From contig CALIMJ010000006.1 in NCBI GenBank assembly GCA_938028835.1, positions 4,759 to 68,758 on the forward strand: DNA of 64,000 nucleotides. Direction: 5' to 3'. The notes beneath the pieces are model-generated. The model searched no databases. It was not told the DNA's origin and saw only the letters and a list, made by a program, of their open reading frames with translations. Shown here in pieces: positions 1-17,427 of the stretch. The translations under genes and the position numbers were made by a program. The stretch's first letter is position 1, and each line of letters opens with the position of its first letter. The DNA is from an uncultured bacterium. Its GTDB lineage: Bacteria > Sysuimicrobiota > Sysuimicrobiia > Sysuimicrobiales > Sysuimicrobiaceae.

Positions 1-324
1 GTCCCCGCGGCCCGCCTCGTACCGGTCCACGGCGTCCGCGATCCCCCGGACCAGCTGGCGCCCCATCTCGTGTTCGGCCAGCATCACCCCGATGGGGCCA
101 CCCTCCCGGGGCACTCCCCGCCGTTCCAGGCACGGGAACAGGCAGCGCTCCTCCTTGCCGTGGTGGCAGCGGTCCACAAAGCCCTGGCTGAAGGCCACCG
201 CCTCCCGCACGTACCCGGGGTCCAGGGTGCCGCCGGACTGCACGGCCCGCAGGCGCGCTTCCAGCCCGTCCAGCACGCCCAGGATTACCTCGTGGTCTCG
301 GACCAGTTCCTCTGTGGACCGCAC
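1..324 (-). CDS. Hemerythrin-like HHE cation-binding domain protein, partial; the 3' part lies beyond the window start
   Basis: Minus-strand translation of 1-324 gives VRSTEELVRDHEVILGVLDGLE...HHGKEERCLFPCLE...VMLAEHEMGRQLV. The H..E/HHG..E/EH spacing is typical of the hemerythrin HHE domain. GTG start at about 324, immediately after the SDR stop. Confidence 0.5.
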   Translation of the reverse strand, partial: MRSTEELVRDHEVILGVLDGLEARLRAVQSGGTLDPGYVREAVAFSQGFVDRCHHGKEERCLFPCLERRGVPREGGPIGVMLAEHEMGRQLVRGIADAVDRYEAGRGD

Positions 325-326
325 GG

Positions 327-1082
327 CTACACCATGGTGAGGCCGCCCGAGACGCTCAGGGTCTGGCCGGTGATGAACGATGCCCGGTCGGAGGCCAGGA
401 ACACCACCGCCTCGGCCACCTCCTCGGGCCGGGCCATGCGGCGCAGGGGGGTGCTGCGGACGATGGCGTCGATGAGCTTCTCGTTGCCCGCCTGGATGAT
501 CTGCTGCAGGAGGGGAGTGTCCGTGATCCCTGGCGCCACCACGTTCACCCGGATGTTGTGGCGCGCCACCTCCCGCGCCAGGGCCTTGCTGAAGGCGATC
601 ACGGCGCCCTTGGCTCCCGAGTAGACGGTCTCGCCTGAAGAGCCCACGCGCCCCGCGTCGGAGCTGATGTTCACCACCACCCCACCCTCCCGCTGCACCA
701 TGTGGGGCAGGACCACGTGACAGGTGTTCAGCACCCCGCGGAAGTTGATGTTGATCACCCGGTCCCACAGGTCCTCGGTGCTCTCCAGGAAGGGCACGAT
801 GCGATCCCAGCCCGCGGCGTTAATGAGGACGTCCACCCGGCCCCAGTGGTCCAGGACCTGCTGCACCGCCTGCGCCACGTGAGCCCGGTTCGTGACGTCC
901 ATCTCCACCGCCAGGGCTTCCCGGTCCTGGCGGCGGATCTCCTCGGCCACCTGCTCGGCGCCCTGCGCGTTGATGTCCGCCACCGCGACCCGCGCACCCC
1001 GGGCGGCCAGGGCCAGGCAGGTCGCCCGGCCGATGCCGCTCGCCCCGCCCGTGACCAGCGCCACGCGATCCTGGAACTCCAT
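327..1082 (-). CDS. Short-chain dehydrogenase/reductase (SDR), 3-oxoacyl-reductase-like
   Basis: TGGASGIGRA Rossmann motif, NAAG motif, and S...YSGAKGAV catalytic tetrad region. 251 aa. Confidence 0.85.
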   Translation of the reverse strand: MEFQDRVALVTGGASGIGRATCLALAARGARVAVADINAQGAEQVAEEIRRQDREALAVEMDVTNRAHVAQAVQQVLDHWGRVDVLINAAGWDRIVPFLESTEDLWDRVININFRGVLNTCHVVLPHMVQREGGVVVNISSDAGRVGSSGETVYSGAKGAVIAFSKALAREVARHNIRVNVVAPGITDTPLLQQIIQAGNEKLIDAIVRSTPLRRMARPEEVAEAVVFLASDRASFITGQTLSVSGGLTMV

Positions 1083-1121
1083 GCTCCCCTCCGCCTCAGG
1101 ATGGTGGGTCCCCGGTCCCGC

Positions 1122-2000
1122 CTACACCTGGCCCGCCCGGGCGGGGACCTCCAGCCGGAACAGTTCGACGGCGTTGTCCCGCACCACCTTCCGGTACACC
1201 TCGGGCTTCAGCCCCAGGGCCCGCAGCTGCTCCAGGCTCTGCTTCCACGGCAGCCCGTTGGTCCCCCACAGGCACCGGTCCTGGCCCAGGCGACTGTTCA
1301 TGAACTGCACCAGCTCCGGCTTCAGGTACTTGGGCATCCACGCGTCGATGCCGATCCACACGGTCTCCCACTTGTAGCAGACGGAGATCAGCTCCTCCAC
1401 CCAGGGCCAGCCGGTGTGGGCGCCCACCACCTTCAGGGTGGGGAAGTCACAAAGGATCCGGTCCAGGTAAATCGGCCGGCCGTGCTCGGAGGGCATCCCC
1501 TCCAGCACGTGGCCCACCTGCATGGAGACGGGGACGTCCAGCTCCACGCACTTGGCATAGAGGGGGTACATCCGGCGGTCGTGCAGGGGGATGTCGAAGC
1601 CGTAGATGTGGACGTAAACCCCCTTGAACCCGTGCTGCGTGACCGCCCGCTCGATCTCCTGCAGGCTCTCCGTAATCCGGTACGGGTTGTAGCCCGCCAG
1701 GCCCACGAACCGTTCGGGGTAGCGGGTCGTGTACTGCAGGACCTCCTCCAGCTGGGTGTCCATATACATCCAGTGGTTCCGGTGGGACCACATCTTGCAC
1801 TGGGTGATGAACACCTTCTCGACCCCGGCCTCGTCCATGGCGGCCAGCATGGCCTCGAAGCTGGGGAAACTGGGCAGGCTGCCCCCCAGGGCCCGCTCCA
1901 TGCGGCACACCAGCTCCCCCTCCTTGGCCTTGTTCCAGCGCGCGATGAACTCCGGGGTAGCCACGTAGTACATGAAGTCGATGGCCCGCACGTCCTCCAT
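1122..2000 (-). CDS. Amidohydrolase-2 family (ACMSD/LigW-like metal-dependent hydrolase/decarboxylase)
   Basis: C-terminal 293 aa of the 605-aa ORF. Starts MEDVRAIDFMYY after a GGAGGTG RBS. Family-like segments include FITQCKMWSHRNHW and GTNGLPW. The upstream 312 codons are GC-rich read-through and are not part of the gene. Confidence 0.75.
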   Translation of the reverse strand: MEDVRAIDFMYYVATPEFIARWNKAKEGELVCRMERALGGSLPSFPSFEAMLAAMDEAGVEKVFITQCKMWSHRNHWMYMDTQLEEVLQYTTRYPERFVGLAGYNPYRITESLQEIERAVTQHGFKGVYVHIYGFDIPLHDRRMYPLYAKCVELDVPVSMQVGHVLEGMPSEHGRPIYLDRILCDFPTLKVVGAHTGWPWVEELISVCYKWETVWIGIDAWMPKYLKPELVQFMNSRLGQDRCLWGTNGLPWKQSLEQLRALGLKPEVYRKVVRDNAVELFRLEVPARAGQV

Positions 2001-2026
2001 CCGCCCACCTCCCTTCCTCGCTCCGT

Positions 2027-2830
2027 TCAGGCGGTGGCCCGCTGCGCGGTACGGCGCAGCCGTTCCTGGGCCAGCTGGGCCGCCCCCAGGGCCGCCGCGT
2101 ACACCCCCTCCTCGTCCGGCGGTACCACGAAGCTCACCCGCAGGTCCTGCTCCAGGCACCGCCGCATCAGGGGGACCCGGGTGAGGCCTCCGGTAAGCAC
2201 GTACCGGGGTTCGCCCCGCAGGCGCTTCACCAGCTGGCCTGCCCGGCCGGCCAGGGCCACGATGGCGCCCGCGCACACGTCCTCCGGGCTGCGGCCGGCC
2301 ACCAGGTGGTTGATCACCTCGCTCTCTGCGAACACCGCGCACACGCTGCTCACCACCGCGGGGTCCTGGGCCGCCTCCGCCAGCCGGGCGATGTCCGCGG
2401 CGGTGTACCCCATGTAGCGCATGGTCTTCTCGAGGAAGGCCCCGCTGCCCGCCGCGCACTTGTCGTTCAGCCGGAAGGCCCGCACCCGGCCCCGCTCGTC
2501 CACCCGGATGGCCTTCACGTTCTGCCCTCCGATGTCCAGGATGGTCCGAGCGTCCGGGTACAGGCGGTGGATGGCCCATGCCTGCGCGGTGAGGTCCGTG
2601 AGCGCGAGGTCCCGGAAGGGGACCATATGCCGACCGTAACCCGTGGCGGCCACGTAGCCCACGTCCTCCCGCCGGAGCCCCGCACTCTCCAGAGCTGCCG
2701 ACAGTCCGCGCTCCGCAGCCCGGGCGAAGTTGAACCCTGTGGGCAGCAGGCTGCGGCCCACCACCTGTCCGTCGTCGCACAGCACCACCTTGGTGTAGGT
2801 AGCGCCCACGTCGATGCCGGCCACCAACAT
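2027..2830 (-). CDS. BadF/BadG/BcrA/BcrD-type ATPase (activase/electron-donor subunit), paralog 1
   Basis: MLVAGIDVGATYTKVV acetate/sugar-kinase-fold N-terminal motif, DIGGQNVKAIRVDERG, and NDKCAAGSGAFLE cluster-helix motif. 267 aa. Confidence 0.85.
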   Translation of the reverse strand: MLVAGIDVGATYTKVVLCDDGQVVGRSLLPTGFNFARAAERGLSAALESAGLRREDVGYVAATGYGRHMVPFRDLALTDLTAQAWAIHRLYPDARTILDIGGQNVKAIRVDERGRVRAFRLNDKCAAGSGAFLEKTMRYMGYTAADIARLAEAAQDPAVVSSVCAVFAESEVINHLVAGRSPEDVCAGAIVALAGRAGQLVKRLRGEPRYVLTGGLTRVPLMRRCLEQDLRVSFVVPPDEEGVYAAALGAAQLAQERLRRTAQRATA

Positions 2831-2832
2831 GG

Positions 2833-3666
2833 CTACTGCCCTCCCGCGGCCGCGGCCACTTCCGCCCGCTCGCCCAGTAGGACGTGGTCCAGGGCGAACA
2901 GGGCGGCGCCGATGGCCCCGCAGAAGTGGGACTCCTCACTCACGTTCACGGGCACCCCGCTCATCTCCCCGATCAGGTGCACCATGGCCACGTTCCGGGC
3001 CACGCCGCCCGTGAAGGTGAGCTCGGGCTCGATCCCGACCCGCCGGAGCAGCGACAGGCTGCGCGAGGCGATGGAGGCGTGCACCCCCATCAGGATGTCC
3101 TCCACCTTGCGGCCCCTCGCCAGCCAGCCCAGGATCTCCGACTCCGCGAATACCGTGCAGGTGGTGGTAATGGTCACAGGGTTGCGGGCCGTCAAAGCCA
3201 GGGGCCCCAGCTCGCCCAGGGGGATCTCCAGGGCCGCGGAGGCCGCCCCCAGGAACCGGCCGGTGCCCGCAGAGCACTTGTCGTTCATGCAGAAGTCCAG
3301 CACCTCGCCGCCGGGCCCCACCCGGATGGCCTTGGTGTCCTGGCCGCCGATGTCCAGGACCGTGCGGGTGTTGGGGAACAGGAAGCAGGCTCCTCGCGCG
3401 TGGCAGCTGATCTCCGTCACCTGGGTGTCCCCGAACTCCACCTTGAAGCGGCCGTACCCGGTGCCCACGGTGTACTGCACGTCCTCGGCGGACAGCCCCG
3501 CTTCCTGGAGCGCGGCCTCGAAGGCGGCCCGCGCCGCCTCGTTCAACCGCGCGCCCGTGTCCACCAGGGCCCGGCCCAGGATCTCCCGCTCCGGGCTCAG
3601 GATCACCGCCTTGGTCTGGGTGGACCCCACGTCCACCCCCGCCACCACCTTCTTGGCACCCCACAT
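2833..3666 (-). CDS. BadF/BadG/BcrA/BcrD-type ATPase, paralog 2
   Basis: [37 protein letters not shown] and [12 protein letters not shown] motifs. ATG at 3666 lies after a GGAGGTGA RBS. 277 aa. The N-terminal part of the 591-aa ORF was discarded. Confidence 0.85.
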
Positions 3667-3674
3667 GTTCACGC

Positions 3675-4973
3675 TCACCTCCCCACTGCAGCCTTGTGCG
3701 CCGCCAGCGCTTCGAAGAAGGCGTCCACGCGGTTCTTGATCTGCGCGTCCGACCACAGCCTCGGGTCCACCAGGTCCGACTGGATGAACAGCCCCGGCAC
3801 GTTCCGCTGCACCCGCATCCACTCCCGCACGTCCGGCAGTCCCGTGCTGGTAGTCCGGCAGCTCTTCACCCCGTGGAAGCAGATGCCGTCCACCTTCCAG
3901 TCCCGCACCACCCGGTCCAGCCACTCCTGCTGGTAGAACATGGCTCCGGTCCAGCCCCAGTAGGTGGCCCGGACCATCTGCTCCGCGAAGCTCTCCAGGG
4001 GCCGGCCCAGGTCGTAGCCGAAGCCCGGCACGAAGCCCCCGCCCGCGAACACCATGTAGGTGCTGTGCACGAACACCCCGCCCCAGGAGCTGAACAGCTC
4101 CACGAACCGGCGGAAGTGGCTGTAGCAGGCGGTCCCCACCAGCACCAGCCGGAACCGCTCGTCCGGCACCGCCGCCATCCCCAGCCGCACCCGCTCCCGC
4201 ATCTCCTCCAGGGCCAGCTCGAAGTACCGGGTGCCCTCCGGGGTCCCCCGGTACAGGTTGGCGATGCCCTGGTAGGTGACCCCCTCCAGGGGCGCGTTGA
4301 AGGGAGCGGGGATGTGCCGGTTCGTGTCGCACACCGCGTGGTACAGCTCCGCCATGCGGTTGGCCTCCCGCAGGTGCTCCCGGAACCGGTCGATGTCGAA
4401 GGACTTCCCGGTGATCCGCTCGCACACCTCGATGAGCTCCCGCAGCTGGCCCAGGACGTAGCGACAGTCGTTCTCGAAGGTCTCCCGGAAGGCCTCCGTG
4501 CCCTCCCGCAACGACTCCCGGCCCCGCCAGCCGGGCAGGTCGAAGGTGAACACCGGACAGCCGTAGTAGTGCTCCCAGAACTCTGCCCACTTGAGGTACG
4601 TGTTGCACACGTTGTTGGTGACCACCAGGGCGGGCCGGGGGACCCGTCCGTAGGGGTGCTCCCCCTCCTTCAGCTGCACCCCCACGTCCGCCTTCACGTA
4701 CCCGCAGATGTCCGGGGAGAAGCCGTAGTCCTCCGCCAGCTGGATGTACGCCTGCGACTGGCCCCGGATGGCGGTCTGCAGGGAGGTGATCTCCGGCGCG
4801 TTGATGACGAAGTCAAAGGTCAGCAGCAGCTCGGAAAGCGGCGCCATCACGAACACGTAGGCGGTGGGGTGTCCGGTCTGGGCCGCCTCCGTCATCCGCT
4901 GCCACCACAGCTCCATCAGCCGCCGGCCCTCGCGCCGGCTGACCCCCAGGATCTCCTGCGCCGATGTACTCAC
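3675..4973 (-). CDS. 2-hydroxyacyl-CoA dehydratase / benzoyl-CoA reductase BcrB(BadE)-like subunit
   Basis: HgdB/BcrB family-like sequence (..CGYVKADVG.., ..[15 protein letters not shown].., ..[11 protein letters not shown]..). Start set at the GTG (VSTSAQEIL) about 10 nt after the upstream stop. An alternative ATG (MELWW) lies at about 4916. Confidence 0.7.
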
Positions 4974-4984
4974 ACCGCACCCCC

Positions 4985-6142
4985 TCACGCGAACTGGAAC
5001 AGCAAAGACTCCGCGAAGGTCTCCACTTCCATGCCCACCTGCTCGAACACCGTCATGGTCTCCTCGAACTCCATCACCAGGTGCGGGATCCCCGCACCAT
5101 CCAGGGCCCGGCTGTAGTGCACCTGCTCCTCCAGCCCCGGTTCGCACATCTTGGCCGCGGCCACGATGGCGGCCTCCGCCCCCGCCTCCCGGATGCGCCG
5201 CAGGAGCATCTCCGCCTTGGGCTTGCGGGGGTCCCGCTGCACCGGGCTGTAGCTGCTGCGGTTGAGGTAGCTGTCCGCCAGGTTCCGCCAGGGGTCACCG
5301 TCCAGGGGGACGTCCTCCGTGATCCACCGCAGCCCGATCATGAGGTCGTCGTCCACGATGTAGCAGGCGTTCTGGATCACCGCCAGCATGTCCAAGGGCG
5401 GCTGCTCGCAGAACCCGCCCTCGAACACCACCCGGATGCGGTCCTGCTTCTTGGCGGGCCGCTGCGGCAGGAGCTCCAGCACCCGTCGCAGCAGAACGTT
5501 GTGCTCCTCGCGGGGCATCAGCCCCGCGGAGCGCACCAGCAGGTAGCTCTCCACCGCGCTGAGCAGCCACGGGCTCTCCCGCTTGATCCGGTACACCTCC
5601 CGCAGCAGCCTGCGGTTCTCGTTGAACAGGGCGATGCTGGCCCGCAGGGCGTCCTCGGTGATGGGGCGGCCGCTCAGTTCCTCGATCACGCGGCCGATCC
5701 GGCGGTACTCCCCCACCAGGTAGTCCACCGCGTGGGCGCTGCTGGCGTTGTGGGGGTGGTAGAGGGTCTCCACCCGCATCTGGGGGAAGCTGCGCACCCA
5801 CACCCCGCAGCCGTTGCGGGCGGCGTCGCAGATGTTGGGCACCACCATGAGGCTCAGGAAGTCTAGCCGCCCCGACAGCGCCAGCTCCAGGGAGCTGCGG
5901 ACGATGGAGCACACGAAGGCGGCGATGCGGGCGTCCGCCTGCCGCACCTGGACCGTTCCGCCCGCGCCCGCGATCTTCACGGGCAGCAGGCCTGCCGCGT
6001 GGGCCACCTCCTCGGGGAAGAACACCTGGAAGTGCCCCACCACTTTGCCCTGGGGATTCGCCTCCAGCCACCGCCGCACCGCGGGAAACGACGGATCCTC
6101 CACCAGGGCCCTCAGGTCGTCGAAGATCCGCTCCAGCTCCAT
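4985..6142 (-). CDS. 2-hydroxyacyl-CoA dehydratase / benzoyl-CoA reductase BcrC(BadD)-like subunit
   Basis: 385 aa, HGD-D family-like (..VVPNICDAARNGCGVW.., ..AAKMCEPGLEE..). ATG lies 8 nt after an AGAGGGG RBS. Confidence 0.7.
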   Translation of the reverse strand: MELERIFDDLRALVEDPSFPAVRRWLEANPQGKVVGHFQVFFPEEVAHAAGLLPVKIAGAGGTVQVRQADARIAAFVCSIVRSSLELALSGRLDFLSLMVVPNICDAARNGCGVWVRSFPQMRVETLYHPHNASSAHAVDYLVGEYRRIGRVIEELSGRPITEDALRASIALFNENRRLLREVYRIKRESPWLLSAVESYLLVRSAGLMPREEHNVLLRRVLELLPQRPAKKQDRIRVVFEGGFCEQPPLDMLAVIQNACYIVDDDLMIGLRWITEDVPLDGDPWRNLADSYLNRSSYSPVQRDPRKPKAEMLLRRIREAGAEAAIVAAAKMCEPGLEEQVHYSRALDGAGIPHLVMEFEETMTVFEQVGMEVETFAESLLFQFA

Positions 6143-6157
6143 GGCGAACCCCTCTTA

Positions 6158-6184
6158 TCCGACCGGTCAGTCAAACCGTACCCC
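6158..6184 (-). promoter_or_regulatory. Second copy of the GACCGGTCAGTC / CGTACCCC motif, upstream of the bcrC-like gene
   Basis: 12-mer at 6161-6172, 19 nt upstream of the ATG at 6142. CGTACCCC at 6177-6184. Confidence 0.35.
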
Positions 6185-6216
6185 GCGCACTGCGCCAGTC
6201 CAATGGTCCGGATGCC

Positions 6217-6939
6217 TCATCTTTCCTGATGCGATTGATCCACCAAAGCGTTGCGGGGGAACAGGCCCTCCTTCAGGGCCCGCGCCACCGCCTCGGCCCG
6301 GGTGTGGGCGCCCAGCTTGCGCATGAGGTTCTGCACGTGGTTGCGCACGGTAGCGGTAGACAGGAACAACGCCCGGGCGATGGCCTGGGTGTCCATCCCC
6401 TGAGCCAGCAGGCTCAGCACCTCCCGTTCCCTCCGGGTGAGGGGCTGGCTGGCGGCGGCCCCGGCGTCGAACCCCTCCCGCGCGGTGAGCAGGTCCACCA
6501 GCTCCTCGACCCGGCGCTGGTGGGAGATGTCCCGGAACAGGTGTACGACCCAGTACTCGTCCTCGTCCGGCCCGAACCGCACCACCAGGGTACTCTGGTT
6601 GACCCACACGTACCGGCCCTCCCGGCTCCGGTAGCAAACGTCCCGGGGCGGGATAGGTTCGCCCGTCCGCGCCATGACGAACTCCGGGCACCCAGGGCAG
6701 CACACCAGGTGCCCGGTGCGGTCGTGTCCGGTGACCACCCGGTAGCAGGGCCGGCCCAGCACGTCCTCCTTCCGCCAGCCCAAAAGCCGCTCCGCGGCCG
6801 TGTTCCACAGCACCACGCGCTGCCGACCGTCCACCACCATGACAGCTTCCCCGGCCCGCTCCAGCGCCTCCCGCAGGACCCGCACTGCGTCCGCGGTCAG
6901 CCGGCCTCCCGGTACGGCCTGTCCTCGCCCCACTCCCAT
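6217..6939 (-). CDS. PAS-domain sensor fused to LuxR/GerE-type HTH transcriptional regulator
   Basis: N-terminal PAS-like region (VVLWNTAAERLLGW...YVWVNQSTLVV). C-terminal LTRREREVLSLLAQGMDTQAIARALFLSTATVRNHVQNLMRKLG. The true start may be the internal Met at about 6840. Confidence 0.8.
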   Translation of the reverse strand: MGVGRGQAVPGGRLTADAVRVLREALERAGEAVMVVDGRQRVVLWNTAAERLLGWRKEDVLGRPCYRVVTGHDRTGHLVCCPGCPEFVMARTGEPIPPRDVCYRSREGRYVWVNQSTLVVRFGPDEDEYWVVHLFRDISHQRRVEELVDLLTAREGFDAGAAASQPLTRREREVLSLLAQGMDTQAIARALFLSTATVRNHVQNLMRKLGAHTRAEAVARALKEGLFPRNALVDQSHQER

Positions 6940-6955
6940 GGCCTGTCGCCTCCTC

Positions 6956-7723
6956 CTACCGGTGTTGCCAGGCGGGCTTGCGTTTTTCGAGAAACGCCCT
7001 CAGGCCCTCGTGAGCGTCCTCGGTTCGCATGAGCTCTTGCGCGTACACGTGTTCGACCTCCTGGAGCTCCTGGTAGAATACCCGCCGGAAGGACCCCAGG
7101 GCCGCGCGCTTGGCCAGGCGCAGTACCGCCGCGCTGTGGGCGCACAGCTGCTCGACGCGCCGGCGCACCGCCTGCTCGAGATCCTCCGCGGCCACCACGT
7201 CCGTGACCAGGCCCAGTTCGCGGGCCTGCCCTGCGGTCAGGACTTCCCCCGTGAGCACCGGGACCACCGCCTGCTTTCCCATCAGGGGAAGGAAAGCCGC
7301 CGCCGCCACGGGCGGGAACACTCCCACCCGAACCTCGGGCTGTCCGAAGGTCGCGCTTTCAGAGGCCACCACCACGTCGCACAGGGCAATCAGCTCGCAC
7401 CCTCCCCCCAGCGCCGCCCCGCCCACCCCGGCTACCGTGGGCACGTCCGAGTCCACGAGGGTACGGCACAAGGCGTGAAAGGCCTCCAGCATCTCGTGAA
7501 CCTTCTCCGCGGTGTGCTCCGCCACGTCCACCCCCGCGCAGAAGGATCGCCCCTCCGCGGTCAGGACCACAGCCCGCGCGGTGGGGTCCGCGAACGCCTC
7601 CCGGAGAATCCCCTCCAGCTCCCGCATCATCGCGATGGTGAGCACGTTGTGGGGCGGGCGGTTCAGGGTGACCCACCACGCCCCCTCCTCCCGCCGGACC
7701 CGTACCGCCTGATCCTGGTTCAC
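6956..7723 (-). CDS. Enoyl-CoA hydratase/isomerase (crotonase) family protein
   Basis: [15 protein letters not shown] and [25 protein letters not shown] crotonase signatures. GTG start overlaps the ACAD stop (GTGA). Confidence 0.8.
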
Positions 7724-8901
7724 CGCGCCACCTCCTGTCGGGCACTCTCCCGCACCACCTGCCGTCCCACCACCAGGGCCTGGATCTCCGAGGTCCCCTC
7801 GTAGATGCGCAGGGCCCTTACGTCCCGGTACAGGCGCTCGGCCGTGCTTCCCGCCACCACACCCCACGCCCCGTGCAGCTGGACCGCCTCGTCCACCACC
7901 CGCTGGGCGGCTTCCGTGGCGTACAGCTTGGCCATGGAGCTGTCCTGGGGCCCCCGGCCCGCGTCGCAGTCGTGGGCCCACGCGGCCCGGTACACCAGGA
8001 GCTCGCTGGCCTCCACCTCCGTGGCCATCCACGCCAGCTTCCACCGCGCCAGCTGGAAGTCCGACAGCGCCTGTCCGAAGGCCACCCGCTGCCGGCTGTG
8101 CCGCACCGCCTCGTCCAGGGCCCTGCGGGCAAAGCCCACCGCCGCGGCACCCACCGTGGCGCGGAAGGTGTCCAGGGTGCGCATGGCCACCGCATACCCC
8201 TCGCCCTCCTCCCCCAGGCGGTGCGTCGCCGGGACCCGGCAGCCGTCCAGGGTCAGGGTGCCGAGCGGGTGCGGGCTCAGGGTGCGGATGCGGCTGGACA
8301 CCCGCAACCCCTGCGCGTGGGCGTCCACCACGAAGGCCGTGAGGTCTTCCTTGCCAGGGCCGGTGCGCGCGAACACCACGTACTGGTGCGCCAGCCCGGC
8401 GTTGGAGATCCACGTCTTGGTGCCCACGAGCTCGTACCCATCCTGTACCCGGCGAGCCGCCGTCTGGATGGCGGCCACATCCGAACCCGCCTGCGGCTCC
8501 GACAGGGCAAAGGCCGCGATGCGCTCGCCCCGGGCCACCGCGGGCAGGTAGCGGGCCCGGAGCTCCTCACTCCCAAACAGGGCGATGGGCAAGCTGCCGA
8601 GCCCCTGCATGGCGAACGCGAAGTCCGCAAGCCCGCTGTGGTACGCCAGGATCTCCCGGGCCAGGCACAGGCTGCGCACGTCCACCCGGGCGTGCACGCC
8701 TCCGTACGCGGCGGGCACACAGTACCGCAGCCAGCCAGCCTCTCCGAGTCTGCGCACCAGCTCCCGTGCCACCCCGTCGGGGTCGAGCTCCTCCCGCTCC
8801 GCCAGGCCCCCGAGCTCCCGGGCGGCCCACGCGCGCAGGTCCTCCGCCAGCGCCCGGTGGTGGGCGTCGAAGAAGGGCCAGCGCAGGGGGTACAGGTCCA
8901 C
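7720..8901 (-). CDS. Acyl-CoA dehydrogenase
   Basis: 393 aa with ..[10 protein letters not shown].., ..QLHGAWGVV.. and ..IYEGTSEIQ.. ACAD motifs. Confidence 0.9.
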
Positions 8902-8903: not shown

Positions 8904-9743
8904 CTAGTCCCCCCGGAACTCAGGCGGGCGGCGCTGGACGAAGGCTTCGTAACCGCGGGCGAAATCCTGTGTCAGCATGCACAGCGCCTGCGCCTGGGCC
9001 TCCGACTCCACCGCCTCGTCCAGGGACATGTCCCACTCCTTGTGGAGCATCCGCTTGGTGATGGCGTGGGCGAAGGTGGGCCCCCTGGCCAGCTGGCGGG
9101 CCAGCTCCTGGGCCTCCTGCAGCAGCGTCTCCGGAGGGCACAGGCGGTTGAAGAACCCCCACCGCTCCGCCTCCTCGCCCGACATCTCGCGGCCCGTGTA
9201 CAGCAGCTCCGCGGCCCGGCCCAGCCCGACGATCCGGGGCAGCAGGGCGCAGGCGCCCATGTCGGAGCCCGCAAGCCCCACCCGGTTGAACAGGAAGGCC
9301 AAGCGGCTGCGGGCGGTGCCCAGCCGGAGGTCGCACGCCGCGGCCACCACCGCACCCGCACCCACGCACACCCCGTCCACCGCCGCCACCAGGGGCTGTG
9401 GGCAGTGCCGCATGGCCACCACCAGCTCCCCCGTCATCCGTGTGAAGGCCAGCTTGCGCCGGACATCCATGTCCAGGAGGGGCCGGATGATCTCGTGCAC
9501 GTCCCCGCCGGAGCAGAAGTTGCCGCCAGCACCGGTGATCACCACCACCTTCACGTCCTCCACCCGCCGCAGCAACTCGAAGGTGTCCCGCAGCTCCGCG
9601 TAGCTCTCGAAGGTGAAGGGGTTCTTGCGCTCCGGACGGTTGAAGGTGAGGGTGGCCACCCCGTCCTGGAGGTACCACAGGAAGTGTCGAAGCCGGATGT
9701 CCGACCCGCGCATGATCCCTCCCTGCGCCACGGCCTCAACCAC
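8904..9743 (-). CDS. Enoyl-CoA hydratase/isomerase family protein
   Basis: [17 protein letters not shown] and [27 protein letters not shown] motifs. 279 aa. Confidence 0.85.
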
Positions 9744-11286
9744 CCCCCGCCCGCCCCCGCTCCCGCTCCGCCAGCACCCGCCGCAGGATCTTGCCGACCG
9801 CGGACTTGGGCAACTCGTCCACGAACTCCACCTCGCGCACCCGCTTGTAGGGGGCCACCCGCTCCCCCACGAACCGCAGCAGCTCCTCCAGGCTCACCGG
9901 CGCCCTGCGGACCACGAACGCCTTGGGTACCTCCCCCAGTTCGGGGTCGGGCCGGGGGACCACGCAGGCTTCACGCACCGCGGGGTGTTGACGCAGGACC
10001 TCCTCCAGCTCCGCGGGCGCGATGGAGTAGCCCTTGTACTTGATCATTTCCTTGCGGCGGTCCACCCACCACAGGTAGCCGTCCCCGTCGAACCGCACCA
10101 GGTCTCCCGTGCGGAACCAGCCGTCCGCGAACGCCTCCTGGTTGGCCTGCGGGTTGTTCCAGTAGCCCACGGTGACCATCGGCCCCCGCACCAGCAGCTC
10201 CCCCACTTCTCCCGCCTCCAGGTCCCGACCGGTCTCCGGATCCACCACCCGCTGGTCCAGTCCCGGCACCGGAGGTCCCACCGAACCCCGTTTGATCTTC
10301 ATGGGCGGGACCGCGATGTTCATCGGTCCCGCCGTCTCCGTCATGCCGATGTGCTCGGTGGCGGGGCAGCCGAAAACTTCCTCCGCCCGGCGGGCCAGCT
10401 CCGCGTCCAGGGGCAGGGCCGCGGTGTTCAGGAACCGCAGCCCGCGGTAGGCAAACCCCGTCCGCTCCGCGGCCTCCACCAGCTCCCACAGGGCTGGAGG
10501 CACGGCGAACAGCTCCCGAACCCGGTGCGTCTCCATCAGCCGCAACACCTCCACGGCGTCAAACCGTGGGACCAGCACCTGGCAGGCGCCCAGGCACACC
10601 CCGGCATTCAGCAGGGCCAGCAGGCCCGCGCAGTGGCACAGGGGCAGGAAGTGTACGTAGCGGGAGCGTTCCGTGATGAAGCCCACCGCCCGCCCGGCCA
10701 TCAGGTCCGCCACCACGTTGCGGTGGGTGAGGGCCGCGCCCTTGGGAAGGCCCGTGGTGCCGCTGGAGTACAGGATGCAGGCCAGGTCGTGCTGTGGGTC
10801 CAGGACCACGGGTTCGGGCTGCTGCCAGGGCTCTGCGGCTTCCTCCAGCTCGTCCAGGCTCAGCACGTAGCGCAGGGAAGAAGCCACGCCGGCCTCCCGC
10901 AGCTGGCCGACCCACTCCTTCGAGGCCAGGACCATCTGGGCTCCGGTGTCCAGCAGGCACCGCTGCACCTCCGGGAGCTTGCTGAGGGGGCTCAGAGGTA
11001 CCACAACCCCGCCCGCCCGGAGGACCCCGTAAAAGCCCAGGGGGACCTGCGGGCACGTGGGCGACAGGAACACCACGCGGTCGCCCTTCTCCAGCCCCAG
11101 CTCCTGCAGGGCCCGGGCCACCCTTCCGCTGGTGTCCCACAGCTGCCCGTAGGTGGTCACCCGCTCGGTAGGCCCCCACACCAGGACAGGCCGGTTCGGC
11201 TCCGACCGTGCCCACCGCTCCAGCAGCTGGCAGGAGGTCAGCTTGGGGACCGCCAGAGGATGCGCCGTGGGGTGACGGAACACCAA
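9736..11286 (-). CDS. AMP-dependent acyl/aryl-CoA synthetase (candidate 4-hydroxybenzoate/benzoate-CoA ligase)
   Basis: [15 protein letters not shown]-binding motif, GMTE, and the [15 protein letters not shown] hinge. 516 aa. Confidence 0.85.
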
Positions 11287-11345: not shown

Positions 11346-12347
11346 CTAGGAGGCCAGCGCTTCCAGAGCGCGGCGTACGTGGACGGGTGCCGTGCGCCTG
11401 CGATACAGGACCGTGAAGTCGGTGTTGTCCATGGGGTGCACGGCCCGGTGCACGGCCTGGCTCACCTGCTCCAAGACCTCTCCCTCCAGCCGCCGTCCGA
11501 CCACCAGGGACGCGGCTTCCTCCAGCACGAGGGGCCGGGAGGCAACCCCTCCCAGCACCAGCCGGCAGGACGCCACGGTCCCGTCCGGGTCCTGCCGCAC
11601 GGCTGCCGCCACACCCAGGGCCGCGAAGTCCAACGAACCCCGCCGCCGCACCTTGCGGTAGGTGCTGCGCAGCCCGTCCGCGGGCGGGAGCAGGACCTCC
11701 ACCACCAGCTCATCAGGCGACTTGTCCAGGTAGCGGATGCCGTCGTCCCGGTACAGGTCCTCCAGGGGCAGGACGCGCTCCCCTCGAGCGCCCACCAGCC
11801 GCACCTTCGCGCCCAGCGCGATCAGCGCCGGGGCCCCGTCGCCCGCGCTCACCGCCCAGCACCGCCCGCCGCCCGGCGCCACGCGGCACGGTACTTCCTG
11901 CGGGCTGTGGGGCCCGGGTGCCTTCATGCACCAGCCCACGGCCTCGCGCCAGTGCTCCGTCTGGTCGTAGTAGTTGCAGCGCGTGTCCAGGCACAGGTTC
12001 CCGCCCAACGTGCCCATGCGGTGCAAAATGGGGTTGGAGCACACCGCGACCGCTTGCGCCAGCGCACGGTAGGCGGAGCGCACCGCGGGCTGCGCGGCCA
12101 CCTCCGCCAGGGTGCACCCGGCGCGCAGCACCAGGCCCTGTTCCGGACTCCCGGACCAGCCCCGCAGCTCCCGCAGCCCGCGCAGGCTCACCAGGTACCG
12201 GGGCTGCAGCTGGCGGCGTTTCATCTTCGGGAGCAGGTCGGTGCCGCCCGCCAGCGGCGCCGCCTCCGGGCCCAGCTCCGCCAGCATGCGCGTGGCCTCC
12301 GCCACCGTGGCGGGCCGGAGCAACTGAAAAGCGGGCAGGCGCAGCAT
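11346..12347 (-). CDS. Molybdopterin dehydrogenase FAD-binding subunit (CoxM/HcrB-like) with Cys-rich insertion
   Basis: AGGTDLL FAD motif. Inserted loop CLDTRCNYYDQTEHWREAVGWCMKAPGPHSPQEVPCRVAPGGGRC, with Cys spacing 16/14/9. Confidence 0.8.
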   Translation of the reverse strand: MLRLPAFQLLRPATVAEATRMLAELGPEAAPLAGGTDLLPKMKRRQLQPRYLVSLRGLRELRGWSGSPEQGLVLRAGCTLAEVAAQPAVRSAYRALAQAVAVCSNPILHRMGTLGGNLCLDTRCNYYDQTEHWREAVGWCMKAPGPHSPQEVPCRVAPGGGRCWAVSAGDGAPALIALGAKVRLVGARGERVLPLEDLYRDDGIRYLDKSPDELVVEVLLPPADGLRSTYRKVRRRGSLDFAALGVAAAVRQDPDGTVASCRLVLGGVASRPLVLEEAASLVVGRRLEGEVLEQVSQAVHRAVHPMDNTDFTVLYRRRTAPVHVRRALEALAS

Positions 12348-12357
12348 CGGGCTCCCC

Positions 12358-14766
12358 CTATGCGGGCTGCGCCGCCTCCTCCCAGCTCTGGGGGCGGGGG
12401 ACCCGCTCCGGGGGCGGGAAGGAGAACGGCGGCACCTTGGTCGGGCCCACGCGGCCCGTCCGGCCCTTGCGCTGTTCCTCCAAAGCCTTGAGCACCCTCT
12501 CGGGCGTGGCGGGAACTTCGTCCACCCGCACCTTCAGGGCGTCCGCGATGGCGTTGAGGATGGCGGGCACCACGCACAGCAAAGGACCCTGGCCCACCTC
12601 CTTAGCGCTGAAGGGGGCCCGGGGTTCCTCCGTCTCGACCAGGAAGGTGATCACCTCCGGCATCTCGTACACGGTGGGCACCTTGTAGTCCAGCCAGGAC
12701 GGACCCCGGTGCAGCTCCTTGCGGAAGGCCTGCTCCTCCATCAGGGCCTCGCCCAGGGCCATGTGCACGCTGCCCTCCACCTGGCCCTCCACCAGCACCG
12801 GGTTGAGGGCCCGGCCGATGTCGTGGGCCACCCATACCCGCTCCACCTTCACCTCTCCGGTCTCGGGGTCCGCCTGCACCTCCGCCACGCACGCGGAGAA
12901 GGTGTAGGCGGGCGAGGGCCCCACCCCGGAGCCTTTGTACGTCCCCAGCTTCTGCGGGGGCCGGTAGCTGCCGGAGGTGGCCAGGCACCCGAACCTGGCC
13001 TCGGCCCACTGTGCCGCCTGGGCGAAAGAGCCACCGACTTGCGGGTTCGCCTCATCGAAGATTCGCCGGGACCGCGCCACCAGCCGGCTCCGGGGCACCT
13101 GCAGGCGTTCGGCCACCGCCTCGAACAGCAGGTCCCGCACCCGACAGGCGGCCTCATACGCCGCGTTGCCCACCATGAGCGTCACCCGGCTGCTGTAGCT
13201 GCCGAGGTCGATGGGAGTGAGGTCCGTGTCGGAGGTCACCAGGCTTACGTCCTGGGGCTGCAGTCCCAAAACCTCCGCCACGATGGTGGCCACCGCGGTG
13301 GCCGAGCCCTGCCCGATCTCCGTGGCCATGGTGTACACGGTCACCCCGCCCGAGCGGTCCACCCGCAGGTGAACCTCGGAGTGGGGCATGTCGCTGTAGT
13401 AGATGGAGCCGCCCGCGCCCGTGAGGTAGGCGCTGCACGCAAACCCCAGCCCCCGCCCGTAGGGCAGCCGGCCCCGACGCTCGTGCCACCCGCTGGCCTC
13501 CACCACCTTCTCGATGCACGCCCGCAGCCCGTTGCTGGTGATCTCCAGCCAGTTCACCGTGAGCTCGTTGGGCCCCGTGAGGTTGCGCAGCCGCAGCTCC
13601 ACGGGGTCCAGGCCCAGCTCCTCGCTCAGCTTGTCCAGGTGCACTTCCAGGGCGCAGCGGGCCTGCGGGGTGCCGTGGCCGCGCTTGGGGCCGCACGGCG
13701 GCTTGTTGGTGAACACCCGGACGGCCTGGAACCGGTAGTGGGGAATCCGGTAGGTGACCGGCTGCTGCGTGCCGGCGTAGAGCATGGTGGCGGGGCCGAA
13801 GGAGCAGTACGCCCCACCGTCCAGATAGGCCTCCACGTGCATGGCGGTGATGCGGCCGTCCCGCTTCACCCCCGTCCGGATCCGCAGCAGCTCCGGGTGC
13901 CGGCCCCGGTGCGCGTAGAACACCTCCTCCCTCGTGAGGGTGATCTTCACCGGCCGGCCCGTGAGCATGCTGAGCTTGGCAGCACACACCTCGTGGTGGA
14001 AGATGTCCAGCTTGCCGCCGAACCCCCCGCCTACTGCGGGTACCACCACCCGCACCTGGTGCTCCTCCAGGCCCAGGGCCTTCGCCAGTCCCCGGTGCAG
14101 GTAGTGGGGGCCCTGGTGGGACGTCCACAGGGTGAGCTTCCGCGCCCCGGGGTCCCACCAGGCCAGGGCGCTGTGCGGCTCCAGGGGCGCGTGGGTGCTG
14201 CCCTCGTAGAAGAACAGGTCCTCCCGCACGTGGTCGGCTTCCGCGAAACCCACCTCCACGTCGCCGAACTCCAACGAGGCCAGCCGGTGGACGTTGCCAA
14301 ACGGCCCGTACTCGTGGATGCGGGGCTCCGGGTTCCGCAGGGCCTCCTCCAGGTCCATGCGGGCCGGCAGCGGTTCGTACTCCACCTCCACCAGCCGGGC
14401 GGCCTCCTCCGCGGTGTACGGATCCACCGCCGCCAGGGCGGCCACCGGCTCGCCCACGTAGCGCACCTTGTCCACCGCCAGCGCGGTCTCGTCCTGCCCC
14501 ACGGGGAACACGCTGTAGCGGACCGGGACGTCCCGGCCCGTGATGGCCGCCACCACCCCGGGAAGCTGCAGGGCCCGCTCCAGCCTGACCGACACCAGCT
14601 TGGCGTGCGCGTGCGTGCTGCGCACCAGCTTGCCGAACAGCATGCCCGGAAGGCTGAGGTCGTCGGTGTACTGGGCGCGGCCGGAGACCTTGGCCCAGCC
14701 GTCCACCCGCGGCAGGCGCTGGCCCACCACGTTCCACACGCGTTCCCGCTCCTTCAGGACCCGCAT
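12358..14766 (-). CDS. Xanthine-oxidase-family molybdopterin-binding large subunit (HcrA/CoxL-like)
   Basis: 802 aa starting MRVLKERERVWNVVGQ. Ald_Xan_dh family-like throughout. The N-terminal 122 codons of the 924-aa ORF are rejected. Confidence 0.85.
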   Translation of the reverse strand: MRVLKERERVWNVVGQRLPRVDGWAKVSGRAQYTDDLSLPGMLFGKLVRSTHAHAKLVSVRLERALQLPGVVAAITGRDVPVRYSVFPVGQDETALAVDKVRYVGEPVAALAAVDPYTAEEAARLVEVEYEPLPARMDLEEALRNPEPRIHEYGPFGNVHRLASLEFGDVEVGFAEADHVREDLFFYEGSTHAPLEPHSALAWWDPGARKLTLWTSHQGPHYLHRGLAKALGLEEHQVRVVVPAVGGGFGGKLDIFHHEVCAAKLSMLTGRPVKITLTREEVFYAHRGRHPELLRIRTGVKRDGRITAMHVEAYLDGGAYCSFGPATMLYAGTQQPVTYRIPHYRFQAVRVFTNKPPCGPKRGHGTPQARCALEVHLDKLSEELGLDPVELRLRNLTGPNELTVNWLEITSNGLRACIEKVVEASGWHERRGRLPYGRGLGFACSAYLTGAGGSIYYSDMPHSEVHLRVDRSGGVTVYTMATEIGQGSATAVATIVAEVLGLQPQDVSLVTSDTDLTPIDLGSYSSRVTLMVGNAAYEAACRVRDLLFEAVAERLQVPRSRLVARSRRIFDEANPQVGGSFAQAAQWAEARFGCLATSGSYRPPQKLGTYKGSGVGPSPAYTFSACVAEVQADPETGEVKVERVWVAHDIGRALNPVLVEGQVEGSVHMALGEALMEEQAFRKELHRGPSWLDYKVPTVYEMPEVITFLVETEEPRAPFSAKEVGQGPLLCVVPAILNAIADALKVRVDEVPATPERVLKALEEQRKGRTGRVGPTKVPPFSFPPPERVPRPQSWEEAAQPA

Positions 14767-16899: not shown

Positions 16900-17427
16900 C
16901 TATTTCCACAGTGGGATAGATAACCGGTTGCTTCCTGCCTCATCGACCCATAGCTCGTAGACCAGCTGCACCGTTCCGCCGCCAGAGGGATCTCCGCAGG
17001 CGTCACTTCCCGGGGAACTCCCGGTAGGGCTGCTTAGGACAGCCAGGCCATATTCTCGCAGGTTCAGCGCGGCGTTCAGGTCCCGGTCTAGTTCTAGACC
17101 GCACGCCGCACACCGGAAAACCCGGCGGGAAGGGTGTAGCCTGGGCCCCACCATCCCGCACCGCCAGCACCGCCTGGTGGACGGGAAGCCCCCAGATGCC
17201 ACGATGAGCTGCGATCCGTACCAGTGGGCCTAGTACTCCAGCATCCGCCGGAAGCTAGCCCAGCTCACATCGGCTGCACGTCGGGACAGCCTCCCCCCGG
17301 CCAGCCCCCGCACGTTCAGGTCTTCCACCACGATGACTGGCTTGGTTCTCACCAGCCATGTAGTGACCTTGTGCAGGAAGTCCCGGCGGATGCAGCGAAC
17401 CCGGCGGTGCAGCCGTGCCAGCCGCAA
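16900..17427 (-). mobile_element. tnpB: Degenerate IS605/IS1341-type TnpB (OrfB) remnant: frameshifted C-terminal half only
   Basis: Fragment 17230-17427 encodes RRDFLHKVTTWLVRTKPVIVVEDLNVRG...FRRMLEY (RuvC-II region). Fragment 16900-17202 encodes RRVFRCAACGLELDRDLNAALNL (zinc finger plus RuvC-III). The two frames differ. The N-terminal approximately 200 aa are absent. AT-richer end sequences flank the remnant. Confidence 0.7.

Follow-up and report, generated by a model that had tools for sequence, protein, structure and literature searches.

A cluster of four closely spaced genes in a Sysuimicrobiaceae (CSP1-3) metagenome-assembled genome pairs two large subunits of the HGD-D family with two activator-type ATPases, and raises the question of whether it encodes a 2-hydroxyacyl-CoA dehydratase or an ATP-dependent benzoyl-CoA reductase and, if the latter, of which type and for which substrate. 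Class I enzymes of the latter kind fall into three recognised types, BCR, MBR, and BZD (PMC11971306). Comparison of the encoded proteins and of the 64-kb stretch of DNA around them (the window) indicates that the four genes very probably encode a heterotetrameric (αβγδ) class I ATP-dependent benzoyl-CoA reductase of the methylbenzoyl-CoA reductase (MBR) type, to which the nearest characterised enzyme is 44–65% identical.

Gene layout and subunit orthology

All four open reading frames are found on the minus strand at 6142–2027, where a sequence-only reading had described two HGD-D subunits followed by two different BcrA/BcrD-type ATPases: γ (6142–4985, 385 aa; Pfam HGD-D, E = 1e-69), β (4973–3675, 432 aa; HGD-D, E = 6e-62), α (3666–2833, 277 aa; BcrAD_BadFG, E = 2e-66), and δ (2830–2027, 267 aa; BcrAD_BadFG, E = 8e-51). 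The order γ-β-α-δ is, as that reading also held, that of bcrCBAD; the genes are separated by gaps of 11, 8, and 2 nt, and no terminator-like site was found on the minus strand within positions 1–7200. The start of the β gene, previously left ambiguous between GTG 4973 and ATG 4916, can be settled in favor of the GTG, because β residues 8–19, lying upstream of the ATG, align with residues 14–25 of MbdO, G10, R13, and L19 are invariant (13 homologues), a Shine–Dalgarno-like GAGGGGG run directly precedes the GTG, and public gene calls also give a length of 432 aa. Among 80 species-representative genomes from many phyla, the γ-β-α-δ order is kept in every sufficiently complete locus, which argues for an obligate four-subunit unit.

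Each gene product has its own orthologue in the solved MBR heterotetramer, bearing out the reductase subunit logic that had been proposed: γ matches MbdN (PDB 9g87_B; 51% identity, 423 bits), β matches MbdO (9g87_A; 44%, 392 bits), and α and δ are assigned reciprocally to MbdQ (9gai_D; 65%, 375 bits, versus 171 bits for α with MbdP) and MbdP (9gai_C; 45%, 221 bits, versus 168 bits for δ with MbdQ), with E-values from 1e-64 to 1e-125, far past chance. A neighbor-joining tree in which HadB and BzdO served as the outgroups puts MbdO among the 80 homologues. On the NCBIfam profiles, the one means by which the BCR type (Thauera BcrCBAD) was compared and which place MBR relative to BCR only approximately, γ scores 314 bits with the BcrC model (HadC, 211; BzdN, 134), exceeding MbdN itself (231 bits), and the best match of β is the BcrB model (215 bits), above HadB; for α, the match to the BcrA model is confined to its C-terminal half (positions 221–432). 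None of the four subunits reaches the BcrCBAD or Bzd equivalog cut-offs, but the biochemically validated MBR subunits also fall short of these cut-offs, their scores following the same pattern, and the misses are therefore not evidence against the reductase assignment.

Cluster ligands and predicted electron path

The cysteines expected to ligate clusters in the two large subunits, one of the checks suggested earlier, are all conserved (74–80 family members). In γ the four invariant cysteines are C78, C105, C245, and C333 (74 members), of which C245 is shared with MbdN but absent from HadC; the additional cysteines with which BzdN holds its double-cubane cluster were looked for in γ and are absent. 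In β the predicted [4Fe–4S] ligands C90, C123, and C372 align with Cys95, Cys128, and Cys380, the cluster ligands described for BzdO (PMC11971306), and E61, invariant in 80 homologues, aligns with a Glu of both MbdO and HadB. Beside a cluster ligand and next to the active site, residue 126 is Tyr in 80 of 80 homologues, whereas it is Phe in MbdO and His131 in BzdO. We predict γ to be the MbdN/BcrC-like electron-transfer subunit of the catalytic dimer, and β its MbdO/BcrB-like, substrate-binding active-site subunit.

The two ATPases are paralogous but distinct, as had been noted, being 42% identical and each carrying the cluster-helix motif (LNDKCAAGSG in the 267-aa δ and the corresponding ten residues in the 277-aa α). 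The [4Fe–4S]-bridging Cys pair is conserved in both: in α, C131 and C170 together with the ATP-binding motifs in at least 97% of 78 homologues, and in δ, C125 and C164 together with D7/G9/T13/K14 and D99/G101/G102/Q103 (79 homologues). The pair is predicted to constitute two non-identical halves of an ATP-driven electron activator.

By analogy with characterised relatives, the α and δ heterodimer would hold one [4Fe–4S] cluster between them, each subunit contributing one Cys pair. Reduced ferredoxin would load this cluster, and MgATP hydrolysis would push the electron to a very low potential, for transfer through the four-Cys cluster of γ to the three-Cys [4Fe–4S] cluster of β, where the ring of benzoyl-CoA, or of a meta- or para-substituted analogue, would be reduced to give the cyclohexa-1,5-diene-1-carbonyl-CoA. 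The complex would in this way dearomatise benzoyl-CoA-type compounds in an oxygen-independent, ATP-driven reaction.

Neighboring genes and the putative pathway

On the minus strand 26 nt downstream of δ, in the same operon, lies the gene of an Amidohydro_2 protein (1122–2000, 292 aa; PF04909) that has no NCBIfam match and whose best PDB match is the uncharacterised protein 3irs. It is without the usual HxH and strand-8 Asp, a loss common to it and its seven orthologues, and its gene comes after δ only within the Sysuimicrobiota clade, where most loci have it at this place. The next gene (327–1082, minus, 251 aa; best NCBIfam match TIGR03206 BadH, 301 bits, cut-off 431) encodes a BadH-like short-chain dehydrogenase, probably a hydroxy-(cyclohexane/ene)carbonyl-CoA dehydrogenase of ring β-oxidation; homologues with 54–99% identity stand within a few kilobases of the reductase genes in about half of the related loci.

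Directly upstream of the reductase genes, a PAS and LuxR/GerE transcriptional regulator (6217–6939, 240 aa; Pfam PAS and GerE), conserved in position in the closest loci, begins a further series of minus-strand genes. An enoyl-CoA hydratase (6956–7723, 255 aa; best NCBIfam match TIGR03189, 172 bits, cut-off 292) most resembles cyclohexa-1,5-diene-1-carbonyl-CoA hydratase (Dch), and many other lineages likewise have Dch-like hydratases (36–48% identity) beside their reductase genes. It is followed by an acyl-CoA dehydrogenase (7720–8901, 393 aa) with NCBIfam matches all below cut-off (acryloyl-CoA reductase, 251 bits; cyclohexane-1-carbonyl-CoA dehydrogenase, 227; glutaryl-CoA dehydrogenase, 213), an enoyl-CoA hydratase family protein of the PRK08258 type (8904–9743, 279 aa; NF006107, 461 bits, exceeding its cut-off of 330), and an AMP-forming acyl/aryl-CoA ligase (9736–11286, 516 aa), best matched by generic acyl-CoA ligase models and scoring 230 bits on the benzoate-CoA ligase family model (cut-off 375). 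A 4-hydroxybenzoyl-CoA-reductase-like trimer comes next (11346–15251; gamma subunit HcrC, 15251–14754; alpha subunit HcrA, 14766–12358; beta subunit HcrB, 12347–11346), its scores all below cut-off (TIGR03194 for HcrA, 830 bits against 995; TIGR03195, 299 against 405; TIGR03193, 178 against 258). The HcrA- and HcrB-like subunits match the Hcr models best, and the HcrC-like subunit scores marginally higher on two related 2Fe–2S models (192 and 178.0 bits); the HcrB-like subunit follows the HcrB model end to end and the XdhB model in two pieces, consistent with a Cys-rich inserted loop. Farther along are a UbiD-family (de)carboxylase (15338–16741, 467 aa; TIGR00148, 283 bits, above cut-off; VdcC-like model, 264 bits, below), a family III CoA-transferase (17489–18589, 366 aa; Pfam CoA_transf_3, 253 bits, profile positions 1–328 of 366), possibly truncated at its C-terminus, and, on the plus strand, a UbiX flavin prenyltransferase (19474–20067, 197 aa; TIGR00421, 260 bits, above cut-off), the cofactor supplier of the UbiD enzyme.

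Although every context gene pointing to benzoyl-CoA metabolism scores under its equivalog cut-off, the surroundings appear to fit anaerobic hydroxybenzoate/benzoate breakdown, of which the reductase would be the central step in the host genome. The UbiD/UbiX (de)carboxylase, the CoA ligase or transferase, and the 4-hydroxybenzoyl-CoA-reductase-like molybdenum enzyme may feed it, and the Dch-like hydratase, the BadH-like dehydrogenase, and further β-oxidation enzymes may act on its product. Among its NCBIfam matches, the reductase gene cluster shows no ring hydrolase of the BadI/Oah type, which leaves the annotated downstream pathway incomplete; in other lineages, BadI/Oah-like hydrolases and HcrABC-like trimers adjoin the same reductase genes. 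The CxxCxxCxxxC[PAG] motif, searched for in any frame, reveals no ferredoxin gene in the window, and a Pfam scan of the window ORFs, several small ones lying outside it, yielded no ferredoxin-regenerating oxidoreductase.

Alternative readings and relation to known systems

The grouping of the B/C-like subunits with the dehydratases had been set beforehand as a refuting test; β and γ instead score far higher with MbdO/MbdN and BcrB/BcrC than with HadB/HadC. A 2-hydroxyacyl-CoA dehydratase of the HgdAB/HadBC/LcdAB type with two redundant activator genes, to which the shared Pfam families of both subunit kinds, the NCBI label of the relatives ("2-hydroxyacyl-CoA dehydratase family protein"), and the 42–45% identity of α to HadI and HgdC might point, is extremely improbable: the large subunits are 23–29% identical to HadB/C versus 44–51% to MbdO/N, both ATPases have their own orthologues and are retained in order in every sufficiently complete locus among the 80 genomes, C245 of γ is not found in HadC, and the neighbors are aromatic-pathway genes, with amino-acid fermentation genes absent nearby. 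The earlier idea that the enzyme might be a distinct one of Bzd type or form a new subclass, which rested on both ATPases being about 30 kDa, unlike Thauera BcrA, and which the missed BcrCBAD and Bzd cut-offs might also favor, did not hold up and is now very improbable, since ATPases of about 270 aa are normal for the solved MBR (chains of 269 and 273 residues), whose subunits miss the same cut-offs, identity to BzdN/O is 23–28%, MbdO nests inside the homologue tree, and γ is devoid of the BzdN-specific Cys for the [8Fe–9S] cluster (PMC11971306).

More weight can be given to a further reading, itself still unlikely, in which a reductase of the BCR family has this architecture but its physiological substrate is not benzoyl-CoA: candidates are a specific substituted aryl-CoA (methyl-, hydroxy-, or halo-benzoyl-CoA) and a different kind of aryl or alicyclic CoA thioester. 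The adjacent molybdenum enzyme and UbiD would then have substrates different from 4-hydroxybenzoyl-CoA and 4-hydroxybenzoate. The nearest enzyme with known activity takes its name from 3-methylbenzoyl-CoA and is only moderately identical, Tyr126 differs from its counterparts in MbdO and BzdO, and the CoA ligase, HcrABC-like, UbiD (on the VdcC-like model), Dch-like, and BadH-like genes can all be counted below equivalog cut-offs. However, the context genes mostly score best on benzoyl-CoA-pathway models (HcrA, BadH, and Dch), and a strict non-benzoyl specificity would be unusual if MBR is broad; the enzyme reportedly is, and reduces benzoyl-CoA itself too.

The MBR-type reductase favored here shares with 2-hydroxyisocaproyl-CoA dehydratase HadBC and the activators HadI (PDB 3o3m, 4eht) and HgdC (1hux) the BCR/HAD radical enzyme superfamily, the folds of both subunit kinds, cysteines of the clusters, and the PE-motif Glu, which is conserved, whereas the dehydratases have a single homodimeric activator, use ATP catalytically rather than stoichiometrically, and, for HadBC, occur in an amino-acid fermentation context. 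With BzdNOPQ of Aromatoleum sp. CIB (BZD type; BzdNO structure, PDB 8s02; PMC11971306), it has in common the enzyme family, the reaction type, short ATPases, the three β cluster ligands, and Tyr92 (Tyr97 in BzdO), the double-cubane cysteines and His131 of BzdNO setting the two apart. BcrCBAD of Thauera aromatica and BadDEFG of Rhodopseudomonas palustris (BCR type) agree in gene order and general architecture; BcrC and BcrB are the top-ranking profiles for the large subunits and a BadH-like dehydrogenase stands in the operon, but by profile comparison all four equivalog cut-offs are missed, and α (277 aa) is without the N-terminal half of the 432-position BcrA model.

The closest parallel is the 3-methylbenzoyl-CoA reductase MbdONQP of Thauera chlorobenzoica (PDB 9g87, 9gai, 9gal, 9gba), with one-to-one orthology of four subunits at moderate identity, short α and δ ATPases with a Cys pair in each, a four-Cys γ, and a three-Cys plus Glu β. 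The mbd operon is written mbdONQP, β first, in contrast to the γ-first order in the window, which also differs in Tyr126 (Phe in MbdO), in being without a nearby mbdM-like ferredoxin or 2-oxoglutarate:ferredoxin oxidoreductase gene, and in its flanks, formed by the Amidohydro_2 protein, the LuxR-PAS regulator, and the HcrABC-like trimer. The four-gene reductase is a fairly ordinary addition to the MBR subclass, whose structure is already solved, and is noteworthy chiefly for its host, which is not a denitrifying betaproteobacterium, as for MbdONQP, but an uncultured Sysuimicrobiaceae bacterium from a hot-spring phylum.

Identity of the four-gene unit

The sequence-only reading of this DNA had described two dehydratase-like subunits followed by two different ATPases, and four such genes are indeed found as open reading frames on the minus strand of the window (G+C, ~71%), with Pfam assignments in agreement: gamma (385 aa, 6142–4985; HGD-D, E 1e-69), beta (432 aa, GTG start, 4973–3675; HGD-D, E 6e-62), alpha (277 aa, 3666–2833; BcrAD_BadFG, E 2e-66), and delta (267 aa, 2830–2027; BcrAD_BadFG, E 8e-51), separated by gaps of 11, 8, and 2 nt. 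Alpha and delta share 42% identity, two non-identical ATPases being encoded together with the two HGD-D large subunits, and both of the ATPase cluster-helix motifs quoted earlier, one of ten residues and LNDKCAAGSG, are present. The start of beta, previously left ambiguous between GTG at 4973 and ATG at 4916, can be assigned to the GTG, because beta residues 8–19 align with MbdO residues 14–25, 13 homologues all retain G10, R13, and L19, which precede the alternative ATG, a GAGGGGG run lies just 5′ of the GTG, and public gene calls also give 432 aa. A promoter and terminator scan of 1–7200 found neither a sigma-70-like site nor a minus-strand terminator, a result compatible with a single transcription unit and otherwise uninformative.

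Class I benzoyl-CoA reductases comprise three recognized types, BCR (BcrCBAD/BadDEFG), MBR (methylbenzoyl-CoA reductase, MbdONQP of Thauera chlorobenzoica), and BZD (BzdNOPQ), the MBR type being a stable heterotetramer (Fuchs et al. 2025, PMC11971306). When each of the four proteins was used in a PDB sequence search, with identities taken from BLASTP, the best characterized match of every subunit was the corresponding MBR subunit of the 3-methylbenzoyl-CoA reductase structures (PDB 9g87, 9gai, 9gal, and 9gba): gamma matched MbdN (423 bits, E 1e-125, 51% identity), beta MbdO (392 bits, E 4e-116, 44%), alpha MbdQ (375 bits, E 2e-111, 65%), and delta MbdP (221 bits, E 2e-64, 45%). The assignment of the two ATPases is reciprocal, alpha scoring 375 bits with MbdQ versus 171 with MbdP, and delta 221 bits with MbdP versus 168 with MbdQ. 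Alpha is also close in length to the 269-residue MbdQ chain and, since it matches the BcrA profile at positions 221–432 only, lacks the N-terminal half of BcrA, as does MbdQ. Judged from these comparisons, the four genes are predicted to encode a class I reductase of the MBR type, each gene being orthologous to one subunit of the solved heterotetramer.

Conserved residues and alternative assignments

When the subunit sets of 80 related loci are aligned with the PDB sequences, all of the cluster-associated Cys residues that had been proposed for checking, in the ATPases as well as in the large subunits, are retained. In gamma, C78, C105, and C333 are invariant (74 sequences) and common to HadC (a 2-hydroxyisocaproyl-CoA dehydratase subunit, as is HadB), BzdN, and MbdN, whereas C245, also invariant, is common to MbdN only. 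The catalytic aqua-[4Fe–4S] cluster of BzdO is held by three ligands, Cys95, Cys128, and Cys380 (PMC11971306), and their aligned counterparts in beta, the predicted active-site subunit, are C90, C123, and C372, none of which varies among 80 sequences; beta Y92 aligns with BzdO Tyr97, a hydrogen-bond donor to the thioester (PMC11971306). Beta E61, in a PE motif, does not vary either, with a Glu at the same aligned position in MbdO and HadB (the BzdO sequence was aligned from residue 82, beyond Glu65), so that beta has both a three-Cys [4Fe–4S] site and a conserved Glu. Alpha C131/C170 and delta C125/C164, invariant in 78–79 homologues, fall on the conserved, cluster-bridging Cys pair of the dehydratase activators HgdC and HadI, and the nucleotide-binding motifs DxGxT..K, DxGGQ, and GG are conserved in both ATPases. 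At residue 126 of beta, three after the ligand C123, all 80 homologues have Tyr, MbdO has Phe, and BzdO has His131, which adjoins the catalytic water and cluster; Tyr126 may bear on proton delivery or on the substrate range.

The relatives of beta are labelled “dehydratase-family proteins” at NCBI and often “benzoyl-CoA reductase subunit B” at JGI. The reading behind the former label, a 2-hydroxyacyl-CoA dehydratase served by one homodimeric activator, is rejected because the two ATPase genes are distinct and each is conserved as a separate orthologue group. The large subunits are also nearer to the reductases than to the dehydratases: gamma scored 423 bits with MbdN versus 168 with HadC, and beta 392 bits with MbdO versus 90 with HadB, the identities to HadB/HadC and BzdO/BzdN being only 23–29%. 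The NCBIfam models rank the large subunits in agreement with the PDB search (gamma: BcrC 314 bits, HadC 211, BzdN 134; beta: BcrB 215 bits, HadB 111, BzdO 98). In a neighbor-joining tree of the 80 beta homologues, which contains no BCR-type sequences, MbdO nests inside the family and HadB and BzdO are outgroups at ~26%, so the clustering with dehydratases that would have spoken against the sequence-only reading is not seen. Its preference for a benzoyl-CoA reductase over a dehydratase is thus borne out, as is the bcrCBAD-like order of the genes, gamma-beta-alpha-delta, which recurs wherever the locus is covered by enough sequence in the 80 related genomes.

The same reading had taken the short ATPases as a sign of a Bzd-type enzyme or a new subclass, an interpretation that does not hold, since short ATPases are typical of the MBR type, already described and structurally solved. 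A BZD-type enzyme, with which beta has its three cluster ligands in common, is rejected on the cofactor residues, on Tyr126 at the position of His131, and on the identity of the large subunits to BzdN/BzdO (23–28%). Six Cys of BzdN ligate an [8Fe–9S] double cubane (PMC11971306); only three of the nine Cys in the partial BzdN sequence have a Cys counterpart in gamma, so that the BZD-type cofactor set is absent, and gamma carries instead the MbdN set of four Cys including C245. A new subclass might be read from the failure of all four proteins to reach the NCBIfam equivalog cut-offs of the BcrC, BcrB, BcrA, and BcrD models or the Bzd models (BzdN/O/Q). As a control, the validated MBR subunits were run through the same library; they missed the same cut-offs with the same score pattern (MbdN 231 on BcrC; MbdO 221 on BcrB; MbdP 118 on BcrD; MbdQ 221 on BcrA and 196 on BzdQ). 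It follows that the NCBIfam models do not cover the MBR type and that the missed cut-offs do not exclude class I membership, which removes this argument for a new subclass and leaves the MBR-type assignment as the preferred one.

Predicted reaction, distribution, and host

Class I benzoyl-CoA reductases carry out the key step of aromatic ring destruction without O2 in facultative anaerobes: using MgATP and ferredoxin, they reduce benzoyl-CoA by two electrons to cyclohexa-1,5-diene-1-carbonyl-CoA at ~2 ATP per 2 electrons. Their great lability has kept the number isolated to a handful. By analogy to the family (PMC11971306), the alpha-delta heterodimer would carry a bridging [4Fe–4S] cluster that takes an electron from ferredoxin, ATP hydrolysis would lower the potential of this cluster, and the electron would pass through the gamma cluster to the beta cluster, where the ring of the bound aryl-CoA would be converted to the 1,5-dienoyl-CoA by hydrogen-atom and electron transfer. 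Most likely, the physiological substrate is benzoyl-CoA, partly derived from 4-hydroxybenzoyl-CoA. The MBR type prefers benzoyl-CoA substituted with methyl or chloro groups at the meta or para position, and a substituted benzoyl-CoA analogue is a conceivable, less probable substrate. The ferredoxin motif CxxCxxCxxxC[PAG] does not occur in any of the six frames of the whole 64-kb window, indicating that the electron donor is not encoded nearby; likewise, no 2-oxoacid:ferredoxin oxidoreductase was found among the window open reading frames scanned with Pfam, which comprise most of the remaining genes.

Scanning one genome per species with beta gave 112 relatives, of which 80 were kept (46–96% identity). 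The nearest are those of Candidatus Tepidifontimicrobium thermophilum (96%), a member of the phylum Ca. Sysuimicrobiota (formerly CSP1-3), followed by Ca. Sysuimicrobium calidum (80%) and Ca. Fervidifonticultor secundus (70%); more distant ones belong to Actinomycetota, Dormibacterota, Chloroflexota, Gemmatimonadota, KSB1, and others, and identical proteins occur on metagenome contigs of the ENA sample ERZ6863514. MbdO is up to 57% identical to some members of the family, and the other MBR subunits up to 70%, 77%, and 66%. A tblastn search of a plasmid collection with gamma found no BcrC, the only hits being distant (26–33%) dehydratase-family genes. The genome scan shows a wide spread of the four-gene unit among uncultured Actinomycetota, Chloroflexota, Dormibacterota, Gemmatimonadota, and others. 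The locus changes nothing known about the enzyme class itself; it contributes a clear MBR-type orthologue from a lineage of hot springs (Sysuimicrobiaceae, CSP1-3), and the words aromatic, benzoyl, and benzoate are absent from the text of the Sysuimicrobiota phylum description. Its modest interest lies in this host lineage and in the unexplained Amidohydro_2 gene adjoining delta, and a reductase derived from a thermophile might prove more robust in biochemical work or biocatalysis.

Genes surrounding the reductase

Upstream of gamma, on the same minus strand, lie in order genes for a PAS-LuxR regulator, a hydratase (best match, a dienoyl-CoA hydratase model), an acyl-CoA dehydrogenase, a PRK08258-type hydratase, and a CoA ligase, and further upstream a 4-hydroxybenzoyl-CoA reductase-like trimer (11346–15251), a UbiD decarboxylase, a family III CoA-transferase, and a GntR regulator, beyond which UbiX is encoded on the opposite strand. 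All three subunits of the trimer fall below the NCBIfam equivalog cut-offs (HcrA-like alpha, 830 bits vs a cut-off of 995); its alpha and beta subunits match the Hcr models best, and for its gamma subunit two related models score about the same. For the HcrB-like beta subunit (333 aa), the match to the HcrB model covers the full length and that to XdhB only two pieces, and the Cys-rich stretch of this subunit, with five Cys around LCLDTRCNYY...GWCMK...PCRV...RCWAV, is consistent with the extra [4Fe–4S] loop of HcrB. Downstream of delta follow the Amidohydro_2 protein, a BadH-like dehydrogenase (301 bits, cut-off 431), and a hemerythrin, the hemerythrin-domain gene (1–324, minus strand) beginning 2 nt past the dehydrogenase. 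Elsewhere, the reductase family is flanked by BadI/Oah-like hydrolases, BadH-like dehydrogenases, and HcrABC-like trimers. The gene content is as would be expected for anaerobic breakdown of hydroxybenzoate or benzoate via benzoyl-CoA, although the scores fall short of every specific model. A furan-degradation (hmf-like) cluster was considered as another reading of the ligase, hydratase, UbiD/UbiX, and molybdenum-enzyme genes and was set aside in view of the best matches of the Hcr alpha and beta subunits and the presence of a dearomatizing reductase in the cluster.

Between the UbiD and CoA-transferase genes, a 65-aa open reading frame (17230–17427, minus strand) matches only the end of OrfB_IS605 (TnpB) with 40 bits and is a remnant of an IS200/IS605-type element within the aromatic cluster; the family III CoA-transferase beside it matches its profile to position 328 of 366 only and may be truncated. 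UbiD is an intact 467-aa open reading frame in the window (15338–16741) versus two genes (335 + 132 aa) at 1–805 of L001, the public contig, a discrepancy probably due to an assembly or frameshift difference. Most of the window from 20 to 64 kb was scanned with Pfam and contains housekeeping genes, including those for purine biosynthesis, tRNA synthetases, and DNA repair. Beside the aromatic cluster, at 20910–39430, is a long series of purine-biosynthesis genes, IMP dehydrogenase, purH, purN, purM, purF, purL, purQ, purS, purC, purB, purA, and purD, a run broken by two GGDEF/EAL signalling genes (22395–26263).

The Amidohydro_2 gene (292 aa, 1122–2000, minus strand), directly 3′ of delta, occupies this position in most loci of the Sysuimicrobiota clade, and its orthologues in seven related loci (L005-L010 and L040) are 79–99% identical. 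Neither the window protein nor any of the seven orthologues has the N-terminal HxH, which is replaced by IDFMYY, or the strand-8 Asp, where WGTN stands in place of GSDWP. The strand-8 motif is intact in the 27–32% identical homologues that neighbor reductase genes in Chloroflexota and Actinomycetes, and HxH is present in the sole one of them whose match extends to the N-terminus; in distant Chloroflexota homologues beside the reductase, both IDFHIH and GSDWP are retained. The best PDB relative is an uncharacterized Bordetella protein (3irs). A role as a straightforward ring hydrolase is weakened by the loss of the canonical metal and catalytic motifs. We regard as rather unlikely the joint proposal that the Sysuimicrobiaceae have an MBR-type reductase with a non-canonical downstream module, that the Amidohydro_2 protein opens or processes rings as a new kind of enzyme or serves the reductase as an accessory subunit, and that a thermophilic, facultatively anaerobic, uncultured phylum performs previously unreported anaerobic aromatic degradation.

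The region 3′ of delta differs among lineages. The Sysuimicrobiota clade has only the Amidohydro_2 and dehydrogenase genes there (2000–327 in the window). In the next-nearest lineages, a BadI/Oah-like hydratase-family gene stands at the Amidohydro_2 position, often followed by two CoA_trans genes, and many loci of Actinomycetota, Dormibacterota, and others have a BadI/Oah/MenB-like gene, two CoA_trans (PF01144) genes, a BadH-like dehydrogenase, and a TetR regulator (module with BadI/Oah/MenB-like and CoA_trans genes in L011, L017-L020, L023, L024, L036, L039, L043-L048, and L051). Instead of a transferase, the CoA_trans pair, which has no NCBIfam name, might form an IpdAB-like enzyme that cleaves rings.

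Compared with the betaproteobacterial mbd and bzd clusters, in which an electron-donor system is linked to the reductase, the present cluster shows no such linkage. A TetR regulator is encoded next after the hemerythrin on the public contig (region L001 15855–16990) and also after the dehydrogenase in L023, reminiscent of MbdR, which regulates the mbd cluster and is likewise of the TetR family (PMC4424350).
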